DNA from: Theionarchaea archaeon
GTDB lineage: Archaea > Methanobacteriota_B > Thermococci > Methanofastidiosales > SZ-28-30
NCBI GenBank assembly: GCA_018992685.1
Contig: JACVGT010000018.1
Coordinates: 286,578 to 350,577, forward strand
Reading direction: 5' to 3'
DNA: 64,000 nucleotides
Shown piece by piece: positions 55,849 through 64,000 of this stretch. The translations under genes were made by a program, and so were the position numbers. The number at the start of each line of letters is the position of its first letter. Position 1 is the stretch's first letter. The notes beneath the pieces were generated by a model. That model did not search any database and was not told the DNA's origin. It saw only the letters and a program-made list of their open reading frames with translations.

Positions 55849-56517
55849 ATGTCGATTGGTGATGAGAAATCCATTTACTATTTTGATTACTGTGGTGAGT
55901 CAAACACGGAACAAGTCCTTCAACTGGTGAAGGAAAGAGCAAAGGAAATGGAAATTGAAAAGATTGTGGTAGCTTCGGAGACAGGCCTCAGTGCTCTGAA
56001 AGCAGTAGACCTCCTGGACGGATTCAGTATCATTGTGGTTACCTCAGCTCTGGGAAGCAGAGTGGAGAATACCGGGCTGGGAGACCTGCTCATTGGGATA
56101 TCAGATGCCACCATTTTCCAGAACCTTCAGAAGACCTGTACTGTCATACGGGGGACAGACCCTTTCCACAACATTAATGCCCCCTTCCGGGAGATGACCA
56201 ATGAAAAAATCATTAGAGCTATTCTGCACTGTATCTCTTCTGGTGTGGGAGTATGCATGTTGAGTGTGATGATGGCCACTGATCAGGGAGTGCTGACCAA
56301 AGGTGAACGGGTCATCTCGTGTGGAGGATCATTCCTGGGACTGGACACTGCCTGTGTGGTGCGTGCCTCCAACTCTGTGGATCTCTTCACAGAAGATGGG
56401 CTGATTGTGGAGGAAATCGTCTGCAAGCCCAGGAACCCCAAGTATGAGTGGCCTATCAGTCAAGACCGGTGGAGAGGAGATCTCAACCAGTACAGAAGGT
56501 TTATGCGGCAGGAATAA
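55849..56517 (+). CDS. Pyruvate kinase alpha/beta (PK_C) domain protein, COG1751-like
   Basis: YFDYCGESNT, IVVASETG, MATDQG, GLDTA, EIVCKP. Confidence 0.85.
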   Translation: MSIGDEKSIYYFDYCGESNTEQVLQLVKERAKEMEIEKIVVASETGLSALKAVDLLDGFSIIVVTSALGSRVENTGLGDLLIGISDATIFQNLQKTCTVIRGTDPFHNINAPFREMTNEKIIRAILHCISSGVGVCMLSVMMATDQGVLTKGERVISCGGSFLGLDTACVVRASNSVDLFTEDGLIVEEIVCKPRNPKYEWPISQDRWRGDLNQYRRFMRQE

Positions 56518-56611
56518 TTCAGAACTGGGAGTGTAAAGGTGATTTAAGGCATGAGGGCTCTCAGGCAGTCCCAGCAAGGTCCGATAATTCTGATTATGGG
56601 TGGCTCCAGGA

Positions 56612-57229
56612 TTAACGGATACTCTGCCAGATGTCTGGTAGGTCTGAGTAGCATCTGAGGTCCTGGGCATCCCTTCCCACGGGACACTCCAGCACGCATG
56701 TGAAGCATTTGACACACTCTTCATGACGGAAATAGGAATCAAGTGCCCCCGTTGGACATTTGTCCACACACATTGTGCACGTCACGCAGGGGGCAAAATC
56801 CAGGGGCTGACTCGGGAGTACAGGCATGGTGGTCAAGATAGTGGTCAACTGGACCCGTGGTCCGAATTCTGGGGTGATCACAAGAAAGTTCCTGCCAATG
56901 GTTCCAAGGCCCGCCTTTACAGCAAGCTCTCTATGGGGGATTATATCCTTGCCGGGGAGGTCCTCCTGAGAAAAAAGAGCGCCCCAGACCCCAAATCCCC
57001 TTTCACAAAGGAACTGTCTTCCCTGTATGTTTAGAAGATCCATGATCGTGTTTAGGTTCTGTATGGGGTCAGATTGGCTCTTTTTCAACAGCTTGAGAAC
57101 GGAAACACCTATGACGACTGCAGAAGAATACTCAGGGAAGTACTCCCTGCAGCTGCAAAATCCCACGAGGTCGGCTCCCTCCTTCCTGAGGAATCGGTTC
57201 AATTGCTCAGTCTCCGTCTCCGTCTCCAT
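56612..57229 (-). CDS. QueG-like (epoxyqueuosine reductase family) 4Fe-4S protein
   Basis: GADLVG, HRELAVKAGLGTIGRN, FGPRV, CxxCxxCxxxCP x2. Confidence 0.8.
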   Translation of the reverse strand: METETETEQLNRFLRKEGADLVGFCSCREYFPEYSSAVVIGVSVLKLLKKSQSDPIQNLNTIMDLLNIQGRQFLCERGFGVWGALFSQEDLPGKDIIPHRELAVKAGLGTIGRNFLVITPEFGPRVQLTTILTTMPVLPSQPLDFAPCVTCTMCVDKCPTGALDSYFRHEECVKCFTCVLECPVGRDAQDLRCYSDLPDIWQSIR

Positions 57230-57328
57230 TATCTCACATATCCACACTGCCTTATAAACGCTTTATTAAAGTGAGCAGATCTGAGGAAAAGTTGATAAGG
57301 TTGCCCCGCAAGTGAGGATGGTGATTCT

Positions 57329-58411
57329 TTGAATGATGTATACGAAGCATTGAGGGTCAAGATGAACATGTGGCCCATACGGACTCCAAAGACTGACGAA
57401 ATCATGGAGATTCTTCGAATATTATATACTGAAAAGGAGGCAGGCTTCTTGGCTGAGACATTTTCTGCCCCCTATCAGGATGCAAAGACCTGCCAGGAAA
57501 TTTCCATTGAGGCCAAAATGCCCCCGGATGATATCCTAGAAATCCTCGACAACCTGGCAGACAGAGGGTTGGTGTTTCGGTTCCCTCACTGGAAGACAAA
57601 AGAGGTGTATTATGCTCTTCTACCTCTGGTCCCAGGACTTTTCGAGTTCTATTTTTCGGGGCTTGCCAATGAAGAGCAGAAGGAGAAACTGGCCCACCTA
57701 TTTGAGAAGGCTTACAAGAGCGGGCTGGCCATGGAAGCTGGACCAAGTGACTACCCCTGGGAACGAGTAATTCCTATCGAGAAAACATTACAGGTATCCC
57801 AAGAAATTCTGCCGTTTGAAAGAGTCACTGAATTCATAAAAACCTCACACAAGATAGCTGTAATTCCCTGTGCATGCCGAACAAAGCACCCCTGTGGGCA
57901 TCCTCTTGAAGCGTGTATCGTTTTTGATAGCTCAGCAGACTTCATGGTGGGAAGGGGTATAGGTAGCTACCTGAGTGTCGAAGAGGCCTTGACGCTCCTG
58001 GAAGACATGGAAAAAGCGGGACTAGTACATACGACTACCAATTCTCAGAGGAGACCTCAGTTCATCTGCAATTGCTGCACATGTTCGTGCTTGATTCTGC
58101 GTGGGCTGACTGAAATGCACAACCCGAGAGCCTTCGCTGTGTCGAACTTTGTTGCTGAGAGAGATGATGACACCTGTACCTTGTGCAGAACATGCATAGA
58201 GATCTGTCCCTTTGACTGCTACTTCTATCACTATGACCACGGTGATGAACCTGAAAAAATCGGATTCAATCCTGAACGATGTGTGGGGTGTGGGTTGTGC
58301 AGCTCTCACTGCCCCGCAGGAGCCATCACCCTAGTGAAAGTGAGAAGTGAAACACCTGAAGAAACAGCCAGAGATGCCTGGCTGAGAGTCGAAAGCGAGA
58401 GGGTTCACTGA
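57329..58411 (+). CDS. 4Fe-4S dicluster protein with N-terminal wHTH-like region
   Basis: CACR...C...C, ICNCCTCSC and two ferredoxin motifs; RBS GGTGA before TTG. Confidence 0.85.
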   Translation: MNDVYEALRVKMNMWPIRTPKTDEIMEILRILYTEKEAGFLAETFSAPYQDAKTCQEISIEAKMPPDDILEILDNLADRGLVFRFPHWKTKEVYYALLPLVPGLFEFYFSGLANEEQKEKLAHLFEKAYKSGLAMEAGPSDYPWERVIPIEKTLQVSQEILPFERVTEFIKTSHKIAVIPCACRTKHPCGHPLEACIVFDSSADFMVGRGIGSYLSVEEALTLLEDMEKAGLVHTTTNSQRRPQFICNCCTCSCLILRGLTEMHNPRAFAVSNFVAERDDDTCTLCRTCIEICPFDCYFYHYDHGDEPEKIGFNPERCVGCGLCSSHCPAGAITLVKVRSETPEETARDAWLRVESERVH

Positions 58412-58546
58412 AGAGAGACACCGAGTGCTCGGTGGAGTAGCTCAAGTACCTACGGGAAGACCAGCTCAAAAATAAGAGTGTCTCAGATATAATACAGAAT
58501 TCATTCACGAACCCATCCACAAGCACTGGAAGTAGGCAGGCTCACT

Positions 58547-59005
58547 TTACCACTCTTCGATTCTTTCAAGAATGACGCTGTGCAGCTGATCTCTATTCTC
58601 ACGGGTGACCTCAAGAATCTCTGCACAGCCCCATGAAGAAAATGCATCCACCAACTCCTTCCTTACAATGATGATGGCAGGTTCTTTAATGTAGTTGAAA
58701 ATATCATGCATTCGTTCCATTTCCAGGTACCCGATTTCATCATATACCAGAATGCTGCCACCCCTTTCAAGGCTATCAATTACGAACTGCAAGGACTCCA
58801 CATTGAAGAAGAAGCCTCTGAACTTCAGACCTGGTCCTTGTTCTGAGCAGAGTATCCTCTTTTCTCCCGTCTTCACATCTTCAACATAGTACCCGGTTTC
58901 AAACCGATCACTTATCACACCATAAAAATCCTTGTTCGATTCTTCCACAACCGTTCTCAGTATAGTCGTCTTCCCAATCCCTCTCTCTCCTGTGATCACG
59001 ATCAT
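58547..59005 (-). CDS. Nucleoside-triphosphatase (THEP1/NTPase_1-like)
   Basis: MIVITGERGIGKTT and LVYDEIGYLE; ATGA overlap with ecfT places the start at 59005. Confidence 0.85.
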   Translation of the reverse strand: MIVITGERGIGKTTILRTVVEESNKDFYGVISDRFETGYYVEDVKTGEKRILCSEQGPGLKFRGFFFNVESLQFVIDSLERGGSILVYDEIGYLEMERMHDIFNYIKEPAIIIVRKELVDAFSSWGCAEILEVTRENRDQLHSVILERIEEW

Positions 59006-59673
59006 GAGCTCCACCACCCTGTTCCCACCACTGCACCAGCCAAGAAAAGAATCCAGACATAATCTTGCCACGTGAACACAGATTCTTTCCTGAATGTCCT
59101 CTTCCTGTGTACACCAAAACACCTCCCCTCCATAGACAGAGTCAAAGCATCTGCTCGCTCCAGAGCCGAATATATCCACGGAAAAAAGGTGTACTTCACA
59201 CTGTTGAGAAGAGAGGGCACCCCTTCCAGGTCAATCCCCCGTGCCATCTGTGCCTTCTTTATCGTCATGGATTCAGTACTGAAAAGTGGAATTAGCCTGA
59301 AGGTCAACACCATGGTCATGCCGTACCGATAGGGCAGTCCACAATTCATCAGAGCATGGGCAAACTCATTGGGATCCTCCCAGGAAAACAACATCCCCGA
59401 AAACACAATGCCTAGGAATCGTAGTACAATGCGCAAGGCATATTCCACCTTGTAGGAAAGGTCTCCTTCTATAAAGAACGCATTGATGCCGAAAATAATC
59501 ACTGCAAACATGATAACGAAGCGACTCACCCGAAATCGAGTAACGTACAGCACAAACGGGATGACGAAAAGCCCTGCCAGAACCACCAGATCATCAATTA
59601 AGAAGAGAACGACACAGTACACCACCACGGTAAGAAACTTGGTGAGAGAATTCAATCTACAGTGTAATCTCAT
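59002..59673 (-). CDS. ecfT: ECF transporter transmembrane T component
   Basis: LNSLTK, FRLIP, AQMARG and SMEGRCF motifs. Confidence 0.9.
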   Translation of the reverse strand: MRLHCRLNSLTKFLTVVVYCVVLFLIDDLVVLAGLFVIPFVLYVTRFRVSRFVIMFAVIIFGINAFFIEGDLSYKVEYALRIVLRFLGIVFSGMLFSWEDPNEFAHALMNCGLPYRYGMTMVLTFRLIPLFSTESMTIKKAQMARGIDLEGVPSLLNSVKYTFFPWIYSALERADALTLSMEGRCFGVHRKRTFRKESVFTWQDYVWILFLAGAVVGTGWWSS

Positions 59674-60982
59674 GCAGGTTCCCTCCTCTCAGTTCAAATA
59701 CCCGAGTGCAAAATGCCTTGGCAATCCATGGATCATGGAGTACGATAACACATGTCTTTCCCCTCAGTAAATCCATGATCTTCTGGACATTCTCATAGTC
59801 CTGACCAATGAAGGGCTCATCCAGTAAAATCACTGAAGGTCCATAGGAGAGAACTGACACAATGTTGAGCCTTCTCTTCTCACCGTAGCTCAACCGGAAG
59901 GGGTTCCTGTCCTGGTAGTCTTGCAATCCCGCATCAACAAGAAGGGGGGTAATGTCACAATCCACAGAGAAATTGGTTGCTGCAAAGCACGCCTCCTTAT
60001 GCACAGTGTTCTCAAATATCTGGTGGTTGGGATTCTGGAACACCATTCCAACGTCCCTGGCAATTTCTGCCGTTTTCTTACCTTTTATACTCTTCTTGTT
60101 CACGAGGATATCCCCTTCATAGTCCAGAAAATTCATGAGGCACATCAAGAGGGTGGTTTTTCCTGACCCGTTTGCACCCATAATGCCTACCACCTCGTTT
60201 TCACGCACTACCAAGTTGACACTCCTGAGAATCGGGCTGTCATACGAGAAAGTCACATTCCGGAGCTCCAGAACGGGCTCTCCTACTCCTCTTGGATATC
60301 CTGAATATATGACATTCATGGGGGTTTCAATTCGGGTGAGAGATCCATTCTTCATTTCGTAGAGACAGTCTGCATATTTGTAGATGTGTTTCCACTTATG
60401 TTCAATGACGATTGCTGAAATATTCGTCTTTCCCTTGATTTTGGTTATGACTCGCATGATTTCCTTGGTGGTCTCTACGTCCAGATTAGAGGTGGGTTCA
60501 TCAAAGATGATGACTTCTGGCTTCATGGCCAGGATGGAAGCAATAGCCACCTTTTGCTTCTCGCCTCCCGACAAAGAGTTAGTCTCCTTTGTTTTCAGGT
60601 GATTTCCTCCCACAATGCTCAGTGCCCAGTCTGTTCTCTGCTCAATTTCTCCAGGTGAGAAACAGAGATTTTCCAGCCCAAAAGCTATTTCATCCTCAAC
60701 ACTCAGGGTACAGATCTGCGCTTCCGGGTCCTGCTGCACGATTCCGATGCTCTGGGCTAGTTCAAAGAGATCCACCTGGTCAATGTTCCTTCCGGAGTAC
60801 AGAATTTCACCCGTGTGGACACCAACATCTCTCAGGAACCCTGCAATGCTCAGAGCTAGTGTGGACTTGCCGCTTCCACTCTTGCCTGTGACAACGATAA
60901 GCTCTCTGTCCACAGTCAGATTGATGTTCTCCAGGATCCACCTGTCAGTGTACCTGAACCTGTAATTCCTCATTTCTATCAT
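59657..60982 (-). CDS. ECF transporter fused double ATPase (A-A')
   Basis: GKSGSGKST, QDPEAQ, LSGGEKQ, second GANGSGKTT, QNPNHQ, LSYGEKR. Confidence 0.93.
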   Translation of the reverse strand: MIEMRNYRFRYTDRWILENINLTVDRELIVVTGKSGSGKSTLALSIAGFLRDVGVHTGEILYSGRNIDQVDLFELAQSIGIVQQDPEAQICTLSVEDEIAFGLENLCFSPGEIEQRTDWALSIVGGNHLKTKETNSLSGGEKQKVAIASILAMKPEVIIFDEPTSNLDVETTKEIMRVITKIKGKTNISAIVIEHKWKHIYKYADCLYEMKNGSLTRIETPMNVIYSGYPRGVGEPVLELRNVTFSYDSPILRSVNLVVRENEVVGIMGANGSGKTTLLMCLMNFLDYEGDILVNKKSIKGKKTAEIARDVGMVFQNPNHQIFENTVHKEACFAATNFSVDCDITPLLVDAGLQDYQDRNPFRLSYGEKRRLNIVSVLSYGPSVILLDEPFIGQDYENVQKIMDLLRGKTCVIVLHDPWIAKAFCTRVFELRGGNLHEITL

Positions 60983-61932
60983 AGTATCTCTATTCTCACA
61001 ATATCCTGCACCCAGTAGCTCCCTTCATACCCTTTTGCTATCAAGCGTCTCTCTCTGGTGATGATGAGTTCTCCAATTCTGTCCAGTGAAAAATCTACGG
61101 TATATCCATCTTCTGCAATAATCCTCACTGTCGTTCCTTGGGGACGTGCCTTTTCCACAATAAGAGACACTGGGATACCTGTATACTGGGTTTCTGGTTC
61201 ATACTTATACTGCCCAACCATTTCTGCTTCCACTGTGGTCTCATACAGGGAAAAATCTTCGTACATGAAGGAGTATGCCTGTTCAACGTCACCTGTCACC
61301 TCAATCTTCCCGGAAGTCTTATAGACGAACGTATAGTAGTACACACCACCCACCATGAAGGCTGCGCATACCACAAGTGTCAGAGCTTTTCTCATGCTGT
61401 ATTCCTGTTCTCTCCCTTCCACGACATTCAGCACATTATAGGCAAAAACGCCTGCAAATGCCACCCCTGACACAAATGAAATGAGAGCAACCAGTGTGAA
61501 GAAATGAATGGCATTGTATGGAGCAAAGAACAACTGGAAGATGAATACATTGGCTGCAGTTGCTATTCCTCCCGCAACAGCAAGGGTATACACATTTCTC
61601 TTCCTCAGGACAAGGAACAGCAAATCAGCAAGAACTCCCTGAATGCCACTGAGCAAGATGACGAAAATGCCCAGTTTGCCGCCAGTAAACAACTCCACAA
61701 CCCCTTTGAGAACCCCAACCATGGTGCAGGTTCCTTCTTTTTTCACCAGTCCAAAAGCCAGGACAATCCAGAAGATGTGAAGCCCTGCCAGGAATTGTCC
61801 TGCCCCGAATGGCACACCCAGAAATCGGTTAACCAGATTGCCCAAGTATCCAATATAGGTGGAACTCACCCCTCCCAGAGCTGATATGATGGCTATTTTC
61901 ACCAGGTCTTTCGTCTGGAAATAGTATTTCAT
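60979..61932 (-). CDS. ECF S-component fused to a molybdopterin-oxidoreductase-like (Oxidored_molyb fold) domain
   Basis: FQTKDLVKIAII S-component start with about 6 TM, then IEVTGDV...YTGIPVS...IIAEDGY...WVQDIVRIEI. Confidence 0.8.
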   Translation of the reverse strand: MKYYFQTKDLVKIAIISALGGVSSTYIGYLGNLVNRFLGVPFGAGQFLAGLHIFWIVLAFGLVKKEGTCTMVGVLKGVVELFTGGKLGIFVILLSGIQGVLADLLFLVLRKRNVYTLAVAGGIATAANVFIFQLFFAPYNAIHFFTLVALISFVSGVAFAGVFAYNVLNVVEGREQEYSMRKALTLVVCAAFMVGGVYYYTFVYKTSGKIEVTGDVEQAYSFMYEDFSLYETTVEAEMVGQYKYEPETQYTGIPVSLIVEKARPQGTTVRIIAEDGYTVDFSLDRIGELIITRERRLIAKGYEGSYWVQDIVRIEIL

Positions 61933-62702
61933 AGCGGAATCACCTCATACGTAATCTCATTCCCAACCCTTACGATAATAAAATGATGAACCCCCTGTCT
62001 AGTCAGTGGTGATCCAGCTCCCCCAGATATGAGAACCCTGGTTTCATTAACATTCTCTTCATACAGGTGGTGTATGTGGGAGCAGAAGACATAGTCCACA
62101 TGGTATTTCTGTACAATCTCAAGGAATTCCTCCGGTTGGATCATACAGTACGTCCCTTGAGGATCCAAGGGCGGCACATGCATGAACACAAATGTATGTT
62201 CAAACCCTTTCCTGAGTTGGTTCTCCAGGAATTCAAGCTGTGATTCATTGAGAACTTTTTTCGAGTTGTCCAGGATCACAAAGAGAGAATTCTGATACGT
62301 GACAGCATAGACCCTCTCTCCGAGGTACGATGTGTAGTACGAGGAGTCATCATGATTCCCGCACACATACAGGATGGGTGATCTCAGCACTGATACTGTC
62401 TCCAAAAACGCATCAAAATCCTGCGGTGTTCCCTCCACCACAAAATCGCCTCCCCCTACCACAAAGAGAGGGTCCAGTTCATTTATCTTTGCGAGCAGTG
62501 TGATGAAAACCTCTGGTGATTGAGAACCTTCAGCAGGTCTGGTATCACCGAAGTAGACAAATGTATAAGGATATGTATTGCCAAACAGGCCTTCTCCCTC
62601 ATAGACAGGATACGGGTTCTGTGTTCTCTGAACGTGATCTCCCGCCACCATGATCAGTACTGCTGCACCTGCCGCAATCACCATCATGTGCCATCTCTTC
62701 AT
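61929..62702 (-). CDS. Secreted or membrane-anchored metallophosphoesterase
   Basis: GDTR, GGDFV, GNHD, HVPP, SHIH; N-terminal signal. Confidence 0.92.
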   Translation of the reverse strand: MKRWHMMVIAAGAAVLIMVAGDHVQRTQNPYPVYEGEGLFGNTYPYTFVYFGDTRPAEGSQSPEVFITLLAKINELDPLFVVGGGDFVVEGTPQDFDAFLETVSVLRSPILYVCGNHDDSSYYTSYLGERVYAVTYQNSLFVILDNSKKVLNESQLEFLENQLRKGFEHTFVFMHVPPLDPQGTYCMIQPEEFLEIVQKYHVDYVFCSHIHHLYEENVNETRVLISGGAGSPLTRQGVHHFIIVRVGNEITYEVIPL

Positions 62703-62775
62703 CGATATGCTGATCTAAGCATGACGTTATAAATATAACGTCCGATATGTCCGGGTAATCATAACGTTTATAAAG
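62703..62775. promoter_or_regulatory. Divergent promoter with two ModE-like 24-bp boxes
   Basis: CGATATG-N10-CATGACG (62703-62726) and CGATATG-N10-CATAACG (62743-62766); palindrome GACGTTATA-AA-TATAACGTC (62723-62742); a TATA box on each strand abuts the boxes. Confidence 0.65.
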
Positions 62776-62804
62776 ACCTCGAACCATGAAATGCTGGTGA
62801 TCAT

Positions 62805-63596
62805 ATGAAAAGACTGGGAATAATGCTTGTCCTGTCGATCCTGGTACTGGGATGTGTTGGACAGGAAAGTGAGGTACCAGAACCTGAGTACACGGTGGAC
62901 GTGACAGGGCTGGCCCAAGGTACAATCACGCTTGCTGACTTGAAGGAGAACCCTTCAGAGTTTACAGCCGTCCTGGTGAAGTCTACTGGTACAGAGATCG
63001 AAAATACTTGGAAAGGAAGGCTTCTCACTGAGTTATTGGCATTGTACAACGTAAATCCAGCATATATTTCCTTTGTGGCTGAGGATGGATACATGATCAC
63101 ACTCCAGATGGAGGACCTGAACAATGCATACCTGTGCTACGAGATGGATGGAAAGGAGCTCACTCTGGAGGATGGTGGACCAGTACGACTGGTAATTTCT
63201 GACCAGCCAGGAAAGTTGTGGATGTCATACCTGAAAGAGATCAAGCTGATAGGAAAGGAGAATGCACTCATTATCCATGGAAAGACTAAAGTAGTCCTAG
63301 CTCTTACAAAAGAAGATTTTGAGCGCTTTGACAAGAAAACAGTGGAAGCCGAATTCAAAGGAGAGATAAAAACCTACAGTGGTATTTCTCTGACGATGTT
63401 GTTGAATCAGGCCCGATATGAAGATGATGCATCTACTATCAGATTTGTAGCGAGAGATGGCTACGTCGTTGAACTGGATTTCACTGAGGTATACAGCAAT
63501 GAAGATATTCTGGTGACAGAGGACTTCACCTTGGTCATGCCGGGATATCAATCAAAGTACTGGATGAAAGACCTAGCGGAGATAGAGGTACTATGA
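62805..63596 (+). CDS. Lipoprotein with two molybdopterin-oxidoreductase-like domains
   Basis: LVLGC lipobox; WKG..L..LL...FVAEDGY...GGPVRLV...WMSYLKEI and a second YSG...FVARDGY...WMKDLAEI repeat. Confidence 0.8.
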   Translation: MKRLGIMLVLSILVLGCVGQESEVPEPEYTVDVTGLAQGTITLADLKENPSEFTAVLVKSTGTEIENTWKGRLLTELLALYNVNPAYISFVAEDGYMITLQMEDLNNAYLCYEMDGKELTLEDGGPVRLVISDQPGKLWMSYLKEIKLIGKENALIIHGKTKVVLALTKEDFERFDKKTVEAEFKGEIKTYSGISLTMLLNQARYEDDASTIRFVARDGYVVELDFTEVYSNEDILVTEDFTLVMPGYQSKYWMKDLAEIEVL

Positions 63597-64000
63597 AGAG
63601 GATTTTCCTATTTCTTCTTATGATTCTGAGTCTTGGATGTATCCATCAAGTCTCCTGGACCTTTCACGTAATAGGTGATGAGGTAACTGAATATACACTG
63701 AAAGGGATTACTTCAATGGATGCCTCAATGATTGAGGAGACACTCATTGAGAAGGAAGTCAAGAAAGTTAGGTGGGAAGGCGTCCTAGCCAGGGAATTCG
63801 GGGAGGGTGATACCATTAACTTCATTTCTCAAGATGGGTATGTGGTCAGCATCCCCTACAGCGTAGATGTGATTCTGGCATACAGGAAAGAAGGGAATCC
63901 CATTGGCGAGGAAGACGGGGGTCCCTTGAAGATCATTGTCGACCCTACCTATGGGTGCAAATGCAACTGGCTCAAGTATCTGAGAATTGTAGAATTCGTG
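63593..64000 (+). CDS. Lipoprotein with molybdopterin-oxidoreductase-like domain; runs off the right window edge
   Basis: Manual translation MKRIFLFLLMILSLGC...RWEGV...FISQDGY...GGPLKIIV...GCKCNWLKYLRIVEF; ATGA overlap with the upstream gene. Confidence 0.8.
   Translation, partial: MKRIFLFLLMILSLGCIHQVSWTFHVIGDEVTEYTLKGITSMDASMIEETLIEKEVKKVRWEGVLAREFGEGDTINFISQDGYVVSIPYSVDVILAYRKEGNPIGEEDGGPLKIIVDPTYGCKCNWLKYLRIVEFV

Follow-up and report, generated by a model that had tools for sequence, protein, structure and literature searches.

A candidate ECF transporter for salvage of the molybdenum and tungsten pterin cofactor in Theionarchaea and related lineages

Which compound is carried by an energy-coupling factor (ECF) transporter whose S component and accompanying lipoproteins all bear outer domains with the fold of sulfite oxidases? 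This question is raised by the last 5.5 kb (58547-64000) of the DNA analyzed here, a stretch of 64,000 nucleotides from Theionarchaea archaeon (GenBank assembly GCA_018992685.1, contig JACVGT010000018.1; hereafter the window), where two divergent transcription units face away from each other. We consider it probable that this locus encodes a dedicated group I ECF importer for salvage of the pterin cofactor of molybdenum (Mo) and tungsten (W) enzymes, i.e., of the molybdenum cofactor (Moco) or its tungsten counterpart (Wco, called Tuco in the riboswitch literature), and that the archaeal cargo would most likely be metal-loaded W- or Mo-molybdopterin. We favor this reading because homologous bacterial operons are linked to a Tuco-type riboswitch, because all carrier genomes encode AOR-family enzymes, because the system is enriched where cofactor synthesis, metal insertion, and tungstate uptake are missing, because its capture domains are of a pterin-binding type resembling the protein PruR, and because the late proteins MobA, MobB, and FdhD are retained. 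Surface capture and ECF import of Moco or Wco had already been put forward in a first-pass annotation of the window, and the riboswitch linkage in bacteria, the gene content of the organism's own genome, and the phyletic pattern all support this proposal.

The locus consists of a minus-strand operon of five genes, neighbors overlapping by 4-17 nt, and two lipoprotein genes on the plus strand. EcfT, EcfAA', an exported metallophosphoesterase, and an NTPase had been named in the first-pass annotation as parts of one divergent locus, and ORF calls, Pfam, and NCBIfam find each of them in place:

61929-62702, minus strand: exported or membrane-anchored metallophosphoesterase of 257 aa, first gene of the operon (PF00149, E 6e-14; N-terminal hydrophobic anchor or signal)
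60979-61932, minus strand: S component of the YkoE/PF09819 type, 317 aa (PF09819, E 8.8e-20)
59657-60982, minus strand: fused EcfA-EcfA' ATPase of 441 aa with two ABC domains (PF00005 in 2 stretches, E 5e-55; TIGR04520 310 bits, TIGR04521 300 bits)
59002-59673, minus strand: EcfT, the transmembrane coupling component (PF02361 (CbiQ), E 1.1e-19)
58547-59005, minus strand: P-loop NTPase of the NTPase_1/THEP1 family, 152 aa, last gene of the operon (PF03266, E 1.6e-14)
62703-62804, no strand: divergent intergenic region of 102 bp with a perfect 8+2+8 palindrome at 62724-62741 and an adjoining TATA-like stretch
62805-63596, plus strand: lipoprotein 1, 263 aa, lipobox LGC, two Cys-less SUOX/PruR-like domains (PF00174, 69.8 bits, cut-off 24)
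63593-64000, plus strand: lipoprotein 2, of which the N-terminal 136 aa lie in the window, lipobox LGC (PF00174, 31.4 bits, cut-off 24)

By its sequence, the transporter is a member of the ECF family, of group I and with a YkoE-family S component, and not a YkoEDC thiamine system: EcfT, two EcfA/A'-type ATPase domains, and an S component of a known family lie in the same operon with 4-nt gene overlaps. Being a fusion, the ATPase scores slightly under the equivalog cut-offs of TIGR04520 (315) and TIGR04521 (330). According to the textbook, ECF transporters, unlike classical ABC importers, have no extracytoplasmic solute-binding protein, but here a binding-type domain sits on the S component itself and companion lipoproteins are encoded next to it; this is a departure of the variant at hand and no ground to exclude it from the family. 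The NTPase (63 bits to NF010248, under the cut-off) most likely starts at the ATG at 59005, in an ATGA overlap with the stop codon of EcfT, and not at the GTG at 59179, and homologues of 155-158 aa follow EcfT in 4 related loci (L011, L013, L014, and L017). Lipoprotein 2 runs off the window, whose end is also the end of its contig (C1). The last 144 nt recur on another contig (C32; L003 19569-19712), reverse-complemented and with 100% identity, and the two contigs probably join here with the locus running on into C32, where lipoprotein 2 is completed (L003 19257-19712, minus strand; 48-aa overlap) to a total of 239 aa with two domains. The SUOX-like domain is thus present in 5 copies, two per lipoprotein and one on the S component, of which 4 lie wholly or partly in the window, in agreement with the at least four copies on two lipoproteins and an S fusion counted at first pass. 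Within this set, the second domain of lipoprotein 1 resembles the C-terminus of the S component (E 1e-18) as well as the first domain of the same lipoprotein (E 6e-8).

Does the organism need to acquire the cofactor? Its genome (G000; 91.2% complete, 0.7% contamination) encodes 6 AOR-family enzymes (AFOR_N), 3 PF00384 proteins (two of them strong matches), and 3 strong PF00174 enzymes (139-155 bits), yet it gave zero matches for MoaC, the C-terminal domain of MoaA (Mob_synth_C), MoaE, MoeA_N, and MoCF_biosynth (MoaB/Mog) in pathway searches that were positive in 11-13 of 14 control genomes. Three adjacent late genes are kept, coding for a MobA-like protein (97.7 bits to TIGR02665, below the strict cut-off, with all top families being MobA), for MobB (107 bits, cut-off 76), and for an FdhD-like protein (128 bits, cut-off 141). 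Because the early and metal-inserting proteins are missing but these three are present, the organism keeps only the steps that act on finished Mo- or W-molybdopterin.

The same combination recurs among its relatives. All 34 genomes of its own order encode AOR, and the S component with fused outer domain (hereafter S-fusion) occurs in 13 of them, MoeA in 22, and MoaC in 20, with MoaC agreeing with MoeA in all but 2 genomes. MoeA is absent from 11 genomes with the S-fusion and present in 2; among genomes without it, MoeA is absent from 1 (a metagenome-assembled genome [MAG] that is 87% complete and 6% contaminated) and present in 20. The pathway was lost in at least 3 places of the order, namely in the window's genus (the pathway is present and the transporter absent in its sister genus), in a whole neighboring family, and in two species within one large genus. 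The neighboring family includes a 99% complete genome in 10 contigs (G006) with the transporter and 9 AOR genes, lacking MoaC, MoeA, and MoaE, and MoaE is missing from the five further auxotrophs that were searched. The tungstate binder WtpA scores above its cut-off in 19 of the 22 genomes with MoeA and in 0 of the 12 without, so that the auxotrophs also lack this route for free metal. Since MoeA, MoaB/Mog, and WtpA are all absent there, the cargo taken up by auxotrophs should already hold its metal.

A sample of 151 genomes of the Thermoplasmata class, each at least 85% complete, gave the S-fusion in 22 of 32 genomes with AOR and without MoeA, in 5 of 49 with both, and in 0 of 70 without AOR; these tallies include one unpublished genome (G261; MoeA present, no S-fusion and no AOR match), and without it they comprise 150 genomes, 69 of them AOR-negative, with none of our conclusions depending on it. 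Among 50 further carriers, AOR was found in 50, MoaC and MoeA were both absent from 24, and MoeA was present without MoaC in 2; 18 of 24 archaeal and 6 of 26 bacterial carriers lack both, and the archaeal auxotrophs include a complete chromosome (G180, locus L089). The three genome sets overlap and are not summable (G138 apparently equals G025, and 8 of the 50 carriers, i.e., G140, G142, G145, G151, G152, G158, G180, and one more, are also among the 151), and Fisher tests on these presence tables overstate significance as kin are not independent and most genomes are MAGs. Phylogenetic profiling against Mo/W enzymes and loss of moaA and moaC, as suggested at first pass, finds carriers that have AOR and that often lack moaA/moaC, moaE, moeA, moaB, and wtpA.

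This gene content bears on the idea that a precursor without metal, either molybdopterin or cyclic pyranopterin monophosphate (cPMP), is imported and then completed in the cell, which we regard as unlikely. cPMP is described as a stable, diffusible intermediate that passes between cells (PMC9370521), most Firmicutes carriers retain MoeA and MoaC and could finish a precursor, a Cys-less PruR-like pocket needs no metal contact, and the phosphoesterase weakly resembles cyclic phosphodiesterases (41 bits to CpdA, below the cut-off). The archaeal auxotrophs, however, are without the finishing genes (MoaE in 0 of 6 and WtpA in 0 of 12, with no MoeA or MoCF_biosynth), and the riboswitch class found ahead of bacterial homologues is reported to sense the finished cofactor (Regulski et al. 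2008, PMC2408646).

How is the operon regulated where such switches exist? An Rfam scan of 37 bacterial homologous loci revealed 21 Moco/Tuco aptamers (RF01055) in 17 loci, scoring 55-79 bits with one at 39.5 (gathering score 36). The 17 loci are a lower bound because many loci without an aptamer are short contigs or start within a giant upstream gene. Beyond one T-box, one c-di-GMP-I riboswitch, and one tRNA, the scan matched nothing else, and it found no thiamine pyrophosphate (TPP), cobalamin, flavin mononucleotide, or tetrahydrofolate (THF) riboswitch in the 37 loci; the first-pass annotation had itself asked whether the locus tracks with cobalamin, thiamine, or flavin, and the switches point elsewhere. 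In at least 10 loci (L062, L047, L031, L080, L081, L069, L068, L065, L058, and L072), the aptamer lies directly 5' of the first operon gene on the same strand, e.g., 90 nt ahead of the phosphoesterase gene in L062, 13 nt in L081 (Thermovorax subterraneus), and 61 nt ahead of the S gene in L069. Additional aptamers precede giant SUOX-domain proteins in L069, L040, and L084, and a terminator-like hairpin overlaps the 3' end of the aptamer in L031, with none near that of L047. The P3 hairpin is missing in all 8 aptamer alignments inspected, and Moco riboswitch variants lacking P3 have been tied to Tuco metabolism (Regulski et al. 2008, PMC2408646). The bacterial auxotrophs of L047 and L065 retain the aptamer before this operon, as expected of feedback control on an importer. 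In Anoxynatronum (L071 and L074, 13227-14010), an aptamer of P3-less length stands directly before the gene for an S component of 178 aa from a different family (PF12822, E 3e-9), a second candidate cofactor-related S component that possibly draws on a shared ECF module.

Switches of this class commonly control metal transporters (PMC2408646), and TupABC, WtpABC, and ModABC share the RF01055 regulon and serve the same enzymes. Could the locus therefore encode an ECF-type tungstate or molybdate importer that replaces Tup, Wtp, or Mod? Metals, e.g., Co and Ni, are among the cargoes of ECF systems, and auxotrophs without WtpA could need another metal route, but we consider this very improbable. 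The known transporters carry an oxyanion and depend on MoeA and the Moa enzymes, whereas the present system is most frequent in genomes that have neither those genes nor WtpA, and genomes without MoeA and MoaB/Mog would be unable to use free metal. L069 already has two TupA-like binding proteins (PBP_like_2, E 1e-38 and 1e-52) beside the operon with a separate aptamer of their own. Moreover, the S component is of the YkoE type for organic ligands and not of the CbiM/NikM type, SUOX/PruR domains bind pterins, and a phosphoesterase and a kinase serve no purpose in oxyanion uptake. A cobalt transporter was likewise rejected, as "ABC_cobalt" and "CbiQ" are mere Pfam family names here and no CbiM, CbiN, NikM, or B12 riboswitch was seen.

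The family of the S component suggests yet another cargo, thiamine or hydroxymethylpyrimidine (HMP), imported as by YkoEDC and handed to a ThiK-like kinase. The nearest solved structure is the thiamine binder YkoE of Bacillus subtilis (5EDL), which our S-fusion alignment profile (A1) matches over the whole membrane part with E 1.6e-16 and which Foldseek also retrieves, and JGI labels homologues as thiamin/HMP permease. Like the present locus, YkoEDC(F) is a dedicated operon with an S component of PF09819, a T component, and a double ATPase; YkoD is a fused AA' ATPase, and APH-family kinases include thiamine kinase. This explanation is nevertheless extremely improbable, and we rejected it on the riboswitch evidence given above, with TPP switches in 0 and RF01055 aptamers in 17 of the 37 bacterial loci. 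Furthermore, a strongly conserved block in the loop and transmembrane helices 1-3 (STYxGYLGN...GVPFGAGQ...GLH) is not matched in YkoE by the HMMER alignment, the phyletic pattern follows the Moco genes, and YkoEDC(F) differs from the present system in which a seventh helix and an outer SUOX-like domain extend the S component and an exported phosphoesterase and SUOX-like surface proteins are added.

What, then, are the outer domains? In the S-fusion, the S part (residues ~1-172) is followed by a seventh transmembrane helix (~180-204) and a Cys-less SUOX/PruR-like domain (~205-317), and the structure model (pLDDT 83) shows the membrane helices of an S component, the extra helix at 180-204, and then a C-terminal beta domain. 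A six-helix S component has both termini in the cytoplasm, and because a seventh helix is added here, the terminal domain is placed outside of the cell. For this model, Foldseek returned YkoE (5EDL) for the membrane part and SorA, YedY, sulfite oxidases, and PruR for the outer domain; lipoprotein 1 (pLDDT 91) gave SorA, YedY, and PruR. The probability to SorA, YedY, and sulfite oxidase is 1.00, lipoprotein 1 superimposes on YedY with a root-mean-square deviation of 2.0 A over ~150 columns, and PruR chains are matched with nearly full coverage (TMt 0.64-0.69; Foldseek E 6e-8 to 6e-6 across models). The lipoprotein 1 family has 404 representatives at E<=0.001.

The first-pass annotation had taken this domain to be the Moco-binding fold of sulfite oxidase and MsrP. 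The fold stands, as both lipoproteins score above the PF00174 cut-off in the search that it had proposed, and the motif that it had read (G..L...A.DGY...W.K.L..I) is borne out by a D-G-Y motif and a C-terminal Trp that are invariant or nearly so in the alignments of S-fusions (A1) and lipoproteins (A2); the Mo-ligating Cys, however, is missing. No conserved Cys column occurs in A1 or A2, cysteine is wholly absent from 2 of the 5 domains of the locus, and the A2 profile aligns SUOX enzymes only downstream of the Cys-bearing hairpin, with the Cys segment of SoxC falling into a gap, but covers almost the whole PruR domain (profile positions 33-145, E 3.5e-9 to 3.6e-6). For the lack of a conserved Cys and the two entirely Cys-free domains, these domains are not catalytic or Moco sites of the sulfite oxidase type and resemble the noncatalytic pterin binder PruR. 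Compared to the enzymes SorA (2BLF), YedY/MsrP (1XDQ), and SoxC (2XTS), they share the fold and PF00174 but have no Cys ligand and no dimerization or heme domain, and Pfam reported no Mo-co dimerization domain in the proteins scanned. Two PF00174 matches elsewhere in the same genome are notable. One belongs to the three strong enzyme genes counted above (142 bits; G000:C20:24939-25364, L005) with an in-frame TGA inside the matched region that could be a selenocysteine codon, a frameshift, or a mark of a pseudogene, and the other is a weak match (32 bits; G000:C15:117989-118261, L008) in a 217-aa ORF that may be another Cys-less SUOX-like protein.

PruR is reported to lack the Cys, to have a truncated hairpin, and to clamp the pterin ring by a Tyr on one side and a Trp on the other, with the Asn of an Asn-x-Tyr motif as a further contact (PMC11194511), and the D-G-Y motif and terminal Trp of our domains may correspond to these pterin-holding residues. 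Both proteins share the small, exported, Cys-less SUOX-fold domain with shortened hairpin, and PruR is a solved pterin binder (7KOU, 7KOS, 7KOM, 7KP2, and 7RKB). Might the transporter then carry a simpler pterin than Moco (neopterin, monapterin, hydroxymethylpterin, or the like), its outer domains acting like PruR? The match of fold and profile would fit, PruR binds such pterins in a pocket that its authors judge to suit small pterins and probably not Moco (PMC11194511, PMC13259868), and no pterin transporter is known according to the latter review. Still, we find this quite unlikely: the bacterial operons stand under Moco/Tuco aptamers and not under THF or other switches, and presence of the S-fusion follows AOR and loss of Moco synthesis (0 of 70 AOR-negative Thermoplasmata), a pattern that would not be expected of a general pterin or folate role. 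PruR also signals to a DcpA-type c-di-GMP enzyme in Proteobacteria, but no DcpA-type (GGDEF/EAL) partner was found in the window or among the ORFs examined in related loci, and the PW motif of PruR was not seen in A1 or A2. Finally, the domains described here differ from PruR in that they occur in tandem, are joined to a phosphoesterase and to a subunit of the transporter, and stand, in bacterial homologues, under Moco/Tuco riboswitch control.

Exported SUOX-like proteins could also suggest traffic in the opposite direction, i.e., movement of the cofactor outward to load these proteins as extracytoplasmic enzymes. All of the SUOX-like proteins are indeed exported, and an ECF system for extracytosolic cofactor trafficking has been published for flavin in Listeria (PMC9973259). 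We nonetheless judge this highly improbable because roughly half of the carriers are unable to make the cofactor, because the catalytic Cys is missing and Pfam gave no Mo-co dimerization domain, and because up to 10 tandem copies per protein fit capture better than catalysis.

Which partners does this candidate importer keep across lineages? The S-fusion has 328 homologues at E<=0.001 (90% clusters) in Theionarchaea, Methanofastidiosia, Thermoplasmata, Methanomassiliicoccales, and Bacillota such as Syntrophomonadaceae and Thermovorax, named "ECF transporter S component", "sulfite oxidase", "molybdopterin-dependent oxidoreductase", or "thiamin/HMP permease" in their sources. Species representatives of GTDB contain 236 stretches that code for a relative, of which 80 loci were fetched, and the following counts refer to loci with the stated flanking length. 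All 55 loci with 3 kb or more of downstream sequence have EcfAA' after the S gene, and EcfT is a separate downstream ORF in 53 of these, being fused (one AA'-T fusion) or missed by the ORF test in the other 2. Of the 60 loci with 2 kb or more of sequence ahead of S, 46 have a phosphoesterase homologue there, and a SUOX-like domain is part of 38 of 57 phosphoesterase ORFs; the Thermovorax protein has a purple acid phosphatase N-terminal domain. Where 4 kb or more of upstream sequence is covered, 47 of 48 loci have one or more further SUOX-like ORFs, whose products reach up to 10 domain matches in a single protein and are anchored via SLH, PKD, or dockerin domains or Reg_prop repeats (Pfam). Giant exported proteins of 1200-1570 aa with 3-10 SUOX-like domains plus PKD or other repeats are encoded at L069 12282-16523, L040 12817-17023, L084 12656-17032, L060 1800-6512, and L088 340-4074. 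Downstream of EcfT, 32 of 50 loci with at least 4 kb on that side have a small APH/RIO-like phosphotransferase gene, convergent in archaea and codirectional in several bacteria, and in two families of the window's order (f3 and f4), all 4 carriers and none of the 20 noncarriers have the APH-like kinase. In 3 of the 50 loci, all from the window's genus or family f2, NTPase_1 stands in the place of the kinase.

From these parts, a route for salvage of the finished cofactor can be proposed. The Cys-less SUOX/PruR-like domains would capture pterin cofactor shed by other cells in anoxic habitats, by means of two lipoproteins here and of S-layer-, dockerin-, or PKD-bearing giants with up to 10 copies elsewhere. 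The exported metallophosphoesterase, domain-fused in most lineages, would then trim off the nucleotide of dinucleotide forms or a terminal phosphate, and because it is often fused to a binding domain, it should act on bound ligand. The domain fused to the S component may pass the ligand to the YkoE-type membrane part, with EcfAA'T powering import. Inside, a cytoplasmic phosphotransferase would rephosphorylate the cofactor or hand it on, presumably the APH/RIO-like kinase in most lineages and the operon-coupled P-loop NTPase here. The fusion of phosphoesterase and binding domain together with the coinherited kinase suggests dephosphorylation outside and rephosphorylation inside, and we infer these steps and the role of the NTPase by analogy to other vitamin salvage routes. 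Finally, the late MobA-like, MobB, and FdhD-like proteins might adapt the cofactor for enzymes of the DMSO-reductase type, with AOR enzymes using it directly.

Several points weigh against import of the finished cofactor. The folds, the gene content, the linkage to riboswitches, and the phyletic pattern are direct findings; which ligand is carried, in which direction it moves, and what the phosphoesterase, kinase, and NTPase do has been deduced. To our knowledge, there is no kinase for dephospho-molybdopterin, and our query for the APH-like kinase had no match in families f1 and f2 or in the genome from which the window comes. Published accounts call Moco very labile when free (PMC9026282, PMC13653126), and the Cys-less PruR-like pocket with its shortened hairpin may be too small for the whole cofactor. 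The phosphoesterase is absent from 14 of the 60 loci with sufficient upstream sequence, and a MobA-like gene occurs in only 1 of 5 other auxotrophs searched. On the archaeal side, 56000-64000 of the window gave no Rfam match, and there is no riboswitch or other regulatory evidence for it. The genes moeA, moaC, and wtpA are clustered (e.g., G012:C1:346677-353716), so that their joint absence amounts to one event or assembly gap and not to three. Carriers with MoaC or MoeA make up 2 of 13 and 5 of 27 in the archaeal sets and 18-20 of 26 in bacteria, and the system is hence not confined to auxotrophs. Conversely, 10 of the 32 Thermoplasmata with AOR and without MoeA have no S-fusion (G188, G194, G198, G208, G213, G225, G241, G255, G260, and G267); these genomes may be incomplete or may use another uptake route.

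Some features around the locus are recorded here as observations in their own right. The palindrome in the divergent intergenic region reads ACGTTATA-AA-TATAACGT and occurs once in the window, with 0.01 expected by chance; this exact palindrome was not found in the other fetched loci. Convergent to the operon, 57329-58411 (plus strand) encodes a 360-aa protein with a weak TrmB-like helix-turn-helix and two 4Fe-4S motifs that may be a redox-sensing regulator, and L011 has a 360-aa ORF at the matching position. The sequence past lipoprotein 2 on C32 (L003 16537-18982) encodes a protein of the creatininase family (PF02633, E 6e-64), a cytoplasmic phosphoesterase (Metallophos_3, E 4.5e-56), and a radical SAM protein, and L011 has its ORFs in the same succession of sizes and strands. 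A 228-aa ORF at L003 9138-9824 (minus strand) consists mostly of tandem DASGLVR heptad-like repeats.

How new would such a transporter be? CbiMNQO and NikMNQO are dedicated ECF modules with extra components (CbiN and NikN), and their S families and ligands differ from those described here. The heme ECF system of Staphylococcus lugdunensis (PMC7299338) likewise is dedicated to scavenging, with a different S family and ligand, and neither it nor CbiMNQO/NikMNQO contains SUOX-fold capture domains, a phosphoesterase, or a kinase. As stated in PMC9026282, Moco is not taken up as a nutrient and all organisms except Caenorhabditis elegans must make it. This nematode takes up protein-bound, finished Moco and is the only organism said there to acquire it externally, by a mechanism described as not understood (PMC9026282; PMC7849362, PMC9793310); the comparison is to an animal and does not suggest any homology of parts. 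A 2026 review gives the way in which pterins cross membranes as unknown (PMC13259868). The first-pass annotation knew of no characterized prokaryotic ECF importer for molybdopterin, and full-text searches of the literature turned up none either, nor any other prokaryotic Moco or Wco importer, with the supplements of Regulski 2008 (gene lists in Table 1 and Fig. S4) and Sun 2013 (RegPrecise), where this operon might be listed as riboswitch-controlled, lying outside this search. Apparent mentions of ECF in Moco reviews turned out to be the name EcFdhD. To date, a transporter for Moco is not known. What would be new here is a class of cargo for an ECF system, and this would challenge the textbook statement on Moco.

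If true, the rule that Moco must be self-made would be overturned for prokaryotes, and genomes rich in W/Mo enzymes yet without the biosynthetic pathway and a tungstate importer would be explained. ECF transporters would be extended by outer capture domains, a function would be given to widespread annotations of Cys-less "molybdopterin-dependent oxidoreductases", and a working importer would be a tool for Moco delivery and for the study of cofactor stability. In its widest form, the proposal is that this is the first transport and salvage pathway for the Mo/W cofactor in any organism and that many anaerobic archaea (relatives of Theionarchaea and Methanofastidiosia, and Thermoplasmata) and some bacteria (Bipolaricaulota and some Bacillota) are true auxotrophs whose AOR-type and other pterin enzymes use the metal-loaded cofactor of their neighbors via PruR-like capture, dephosphorylation outside, ECF import, and APH-type rephosphorylation; we see the case for this as evenly balanced. 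The cofactor would then be a public good like B12 or thiamine, newly recognized as traded in anaerobic communities, and uncultured archaea may need to be supplied with it for cultivation.

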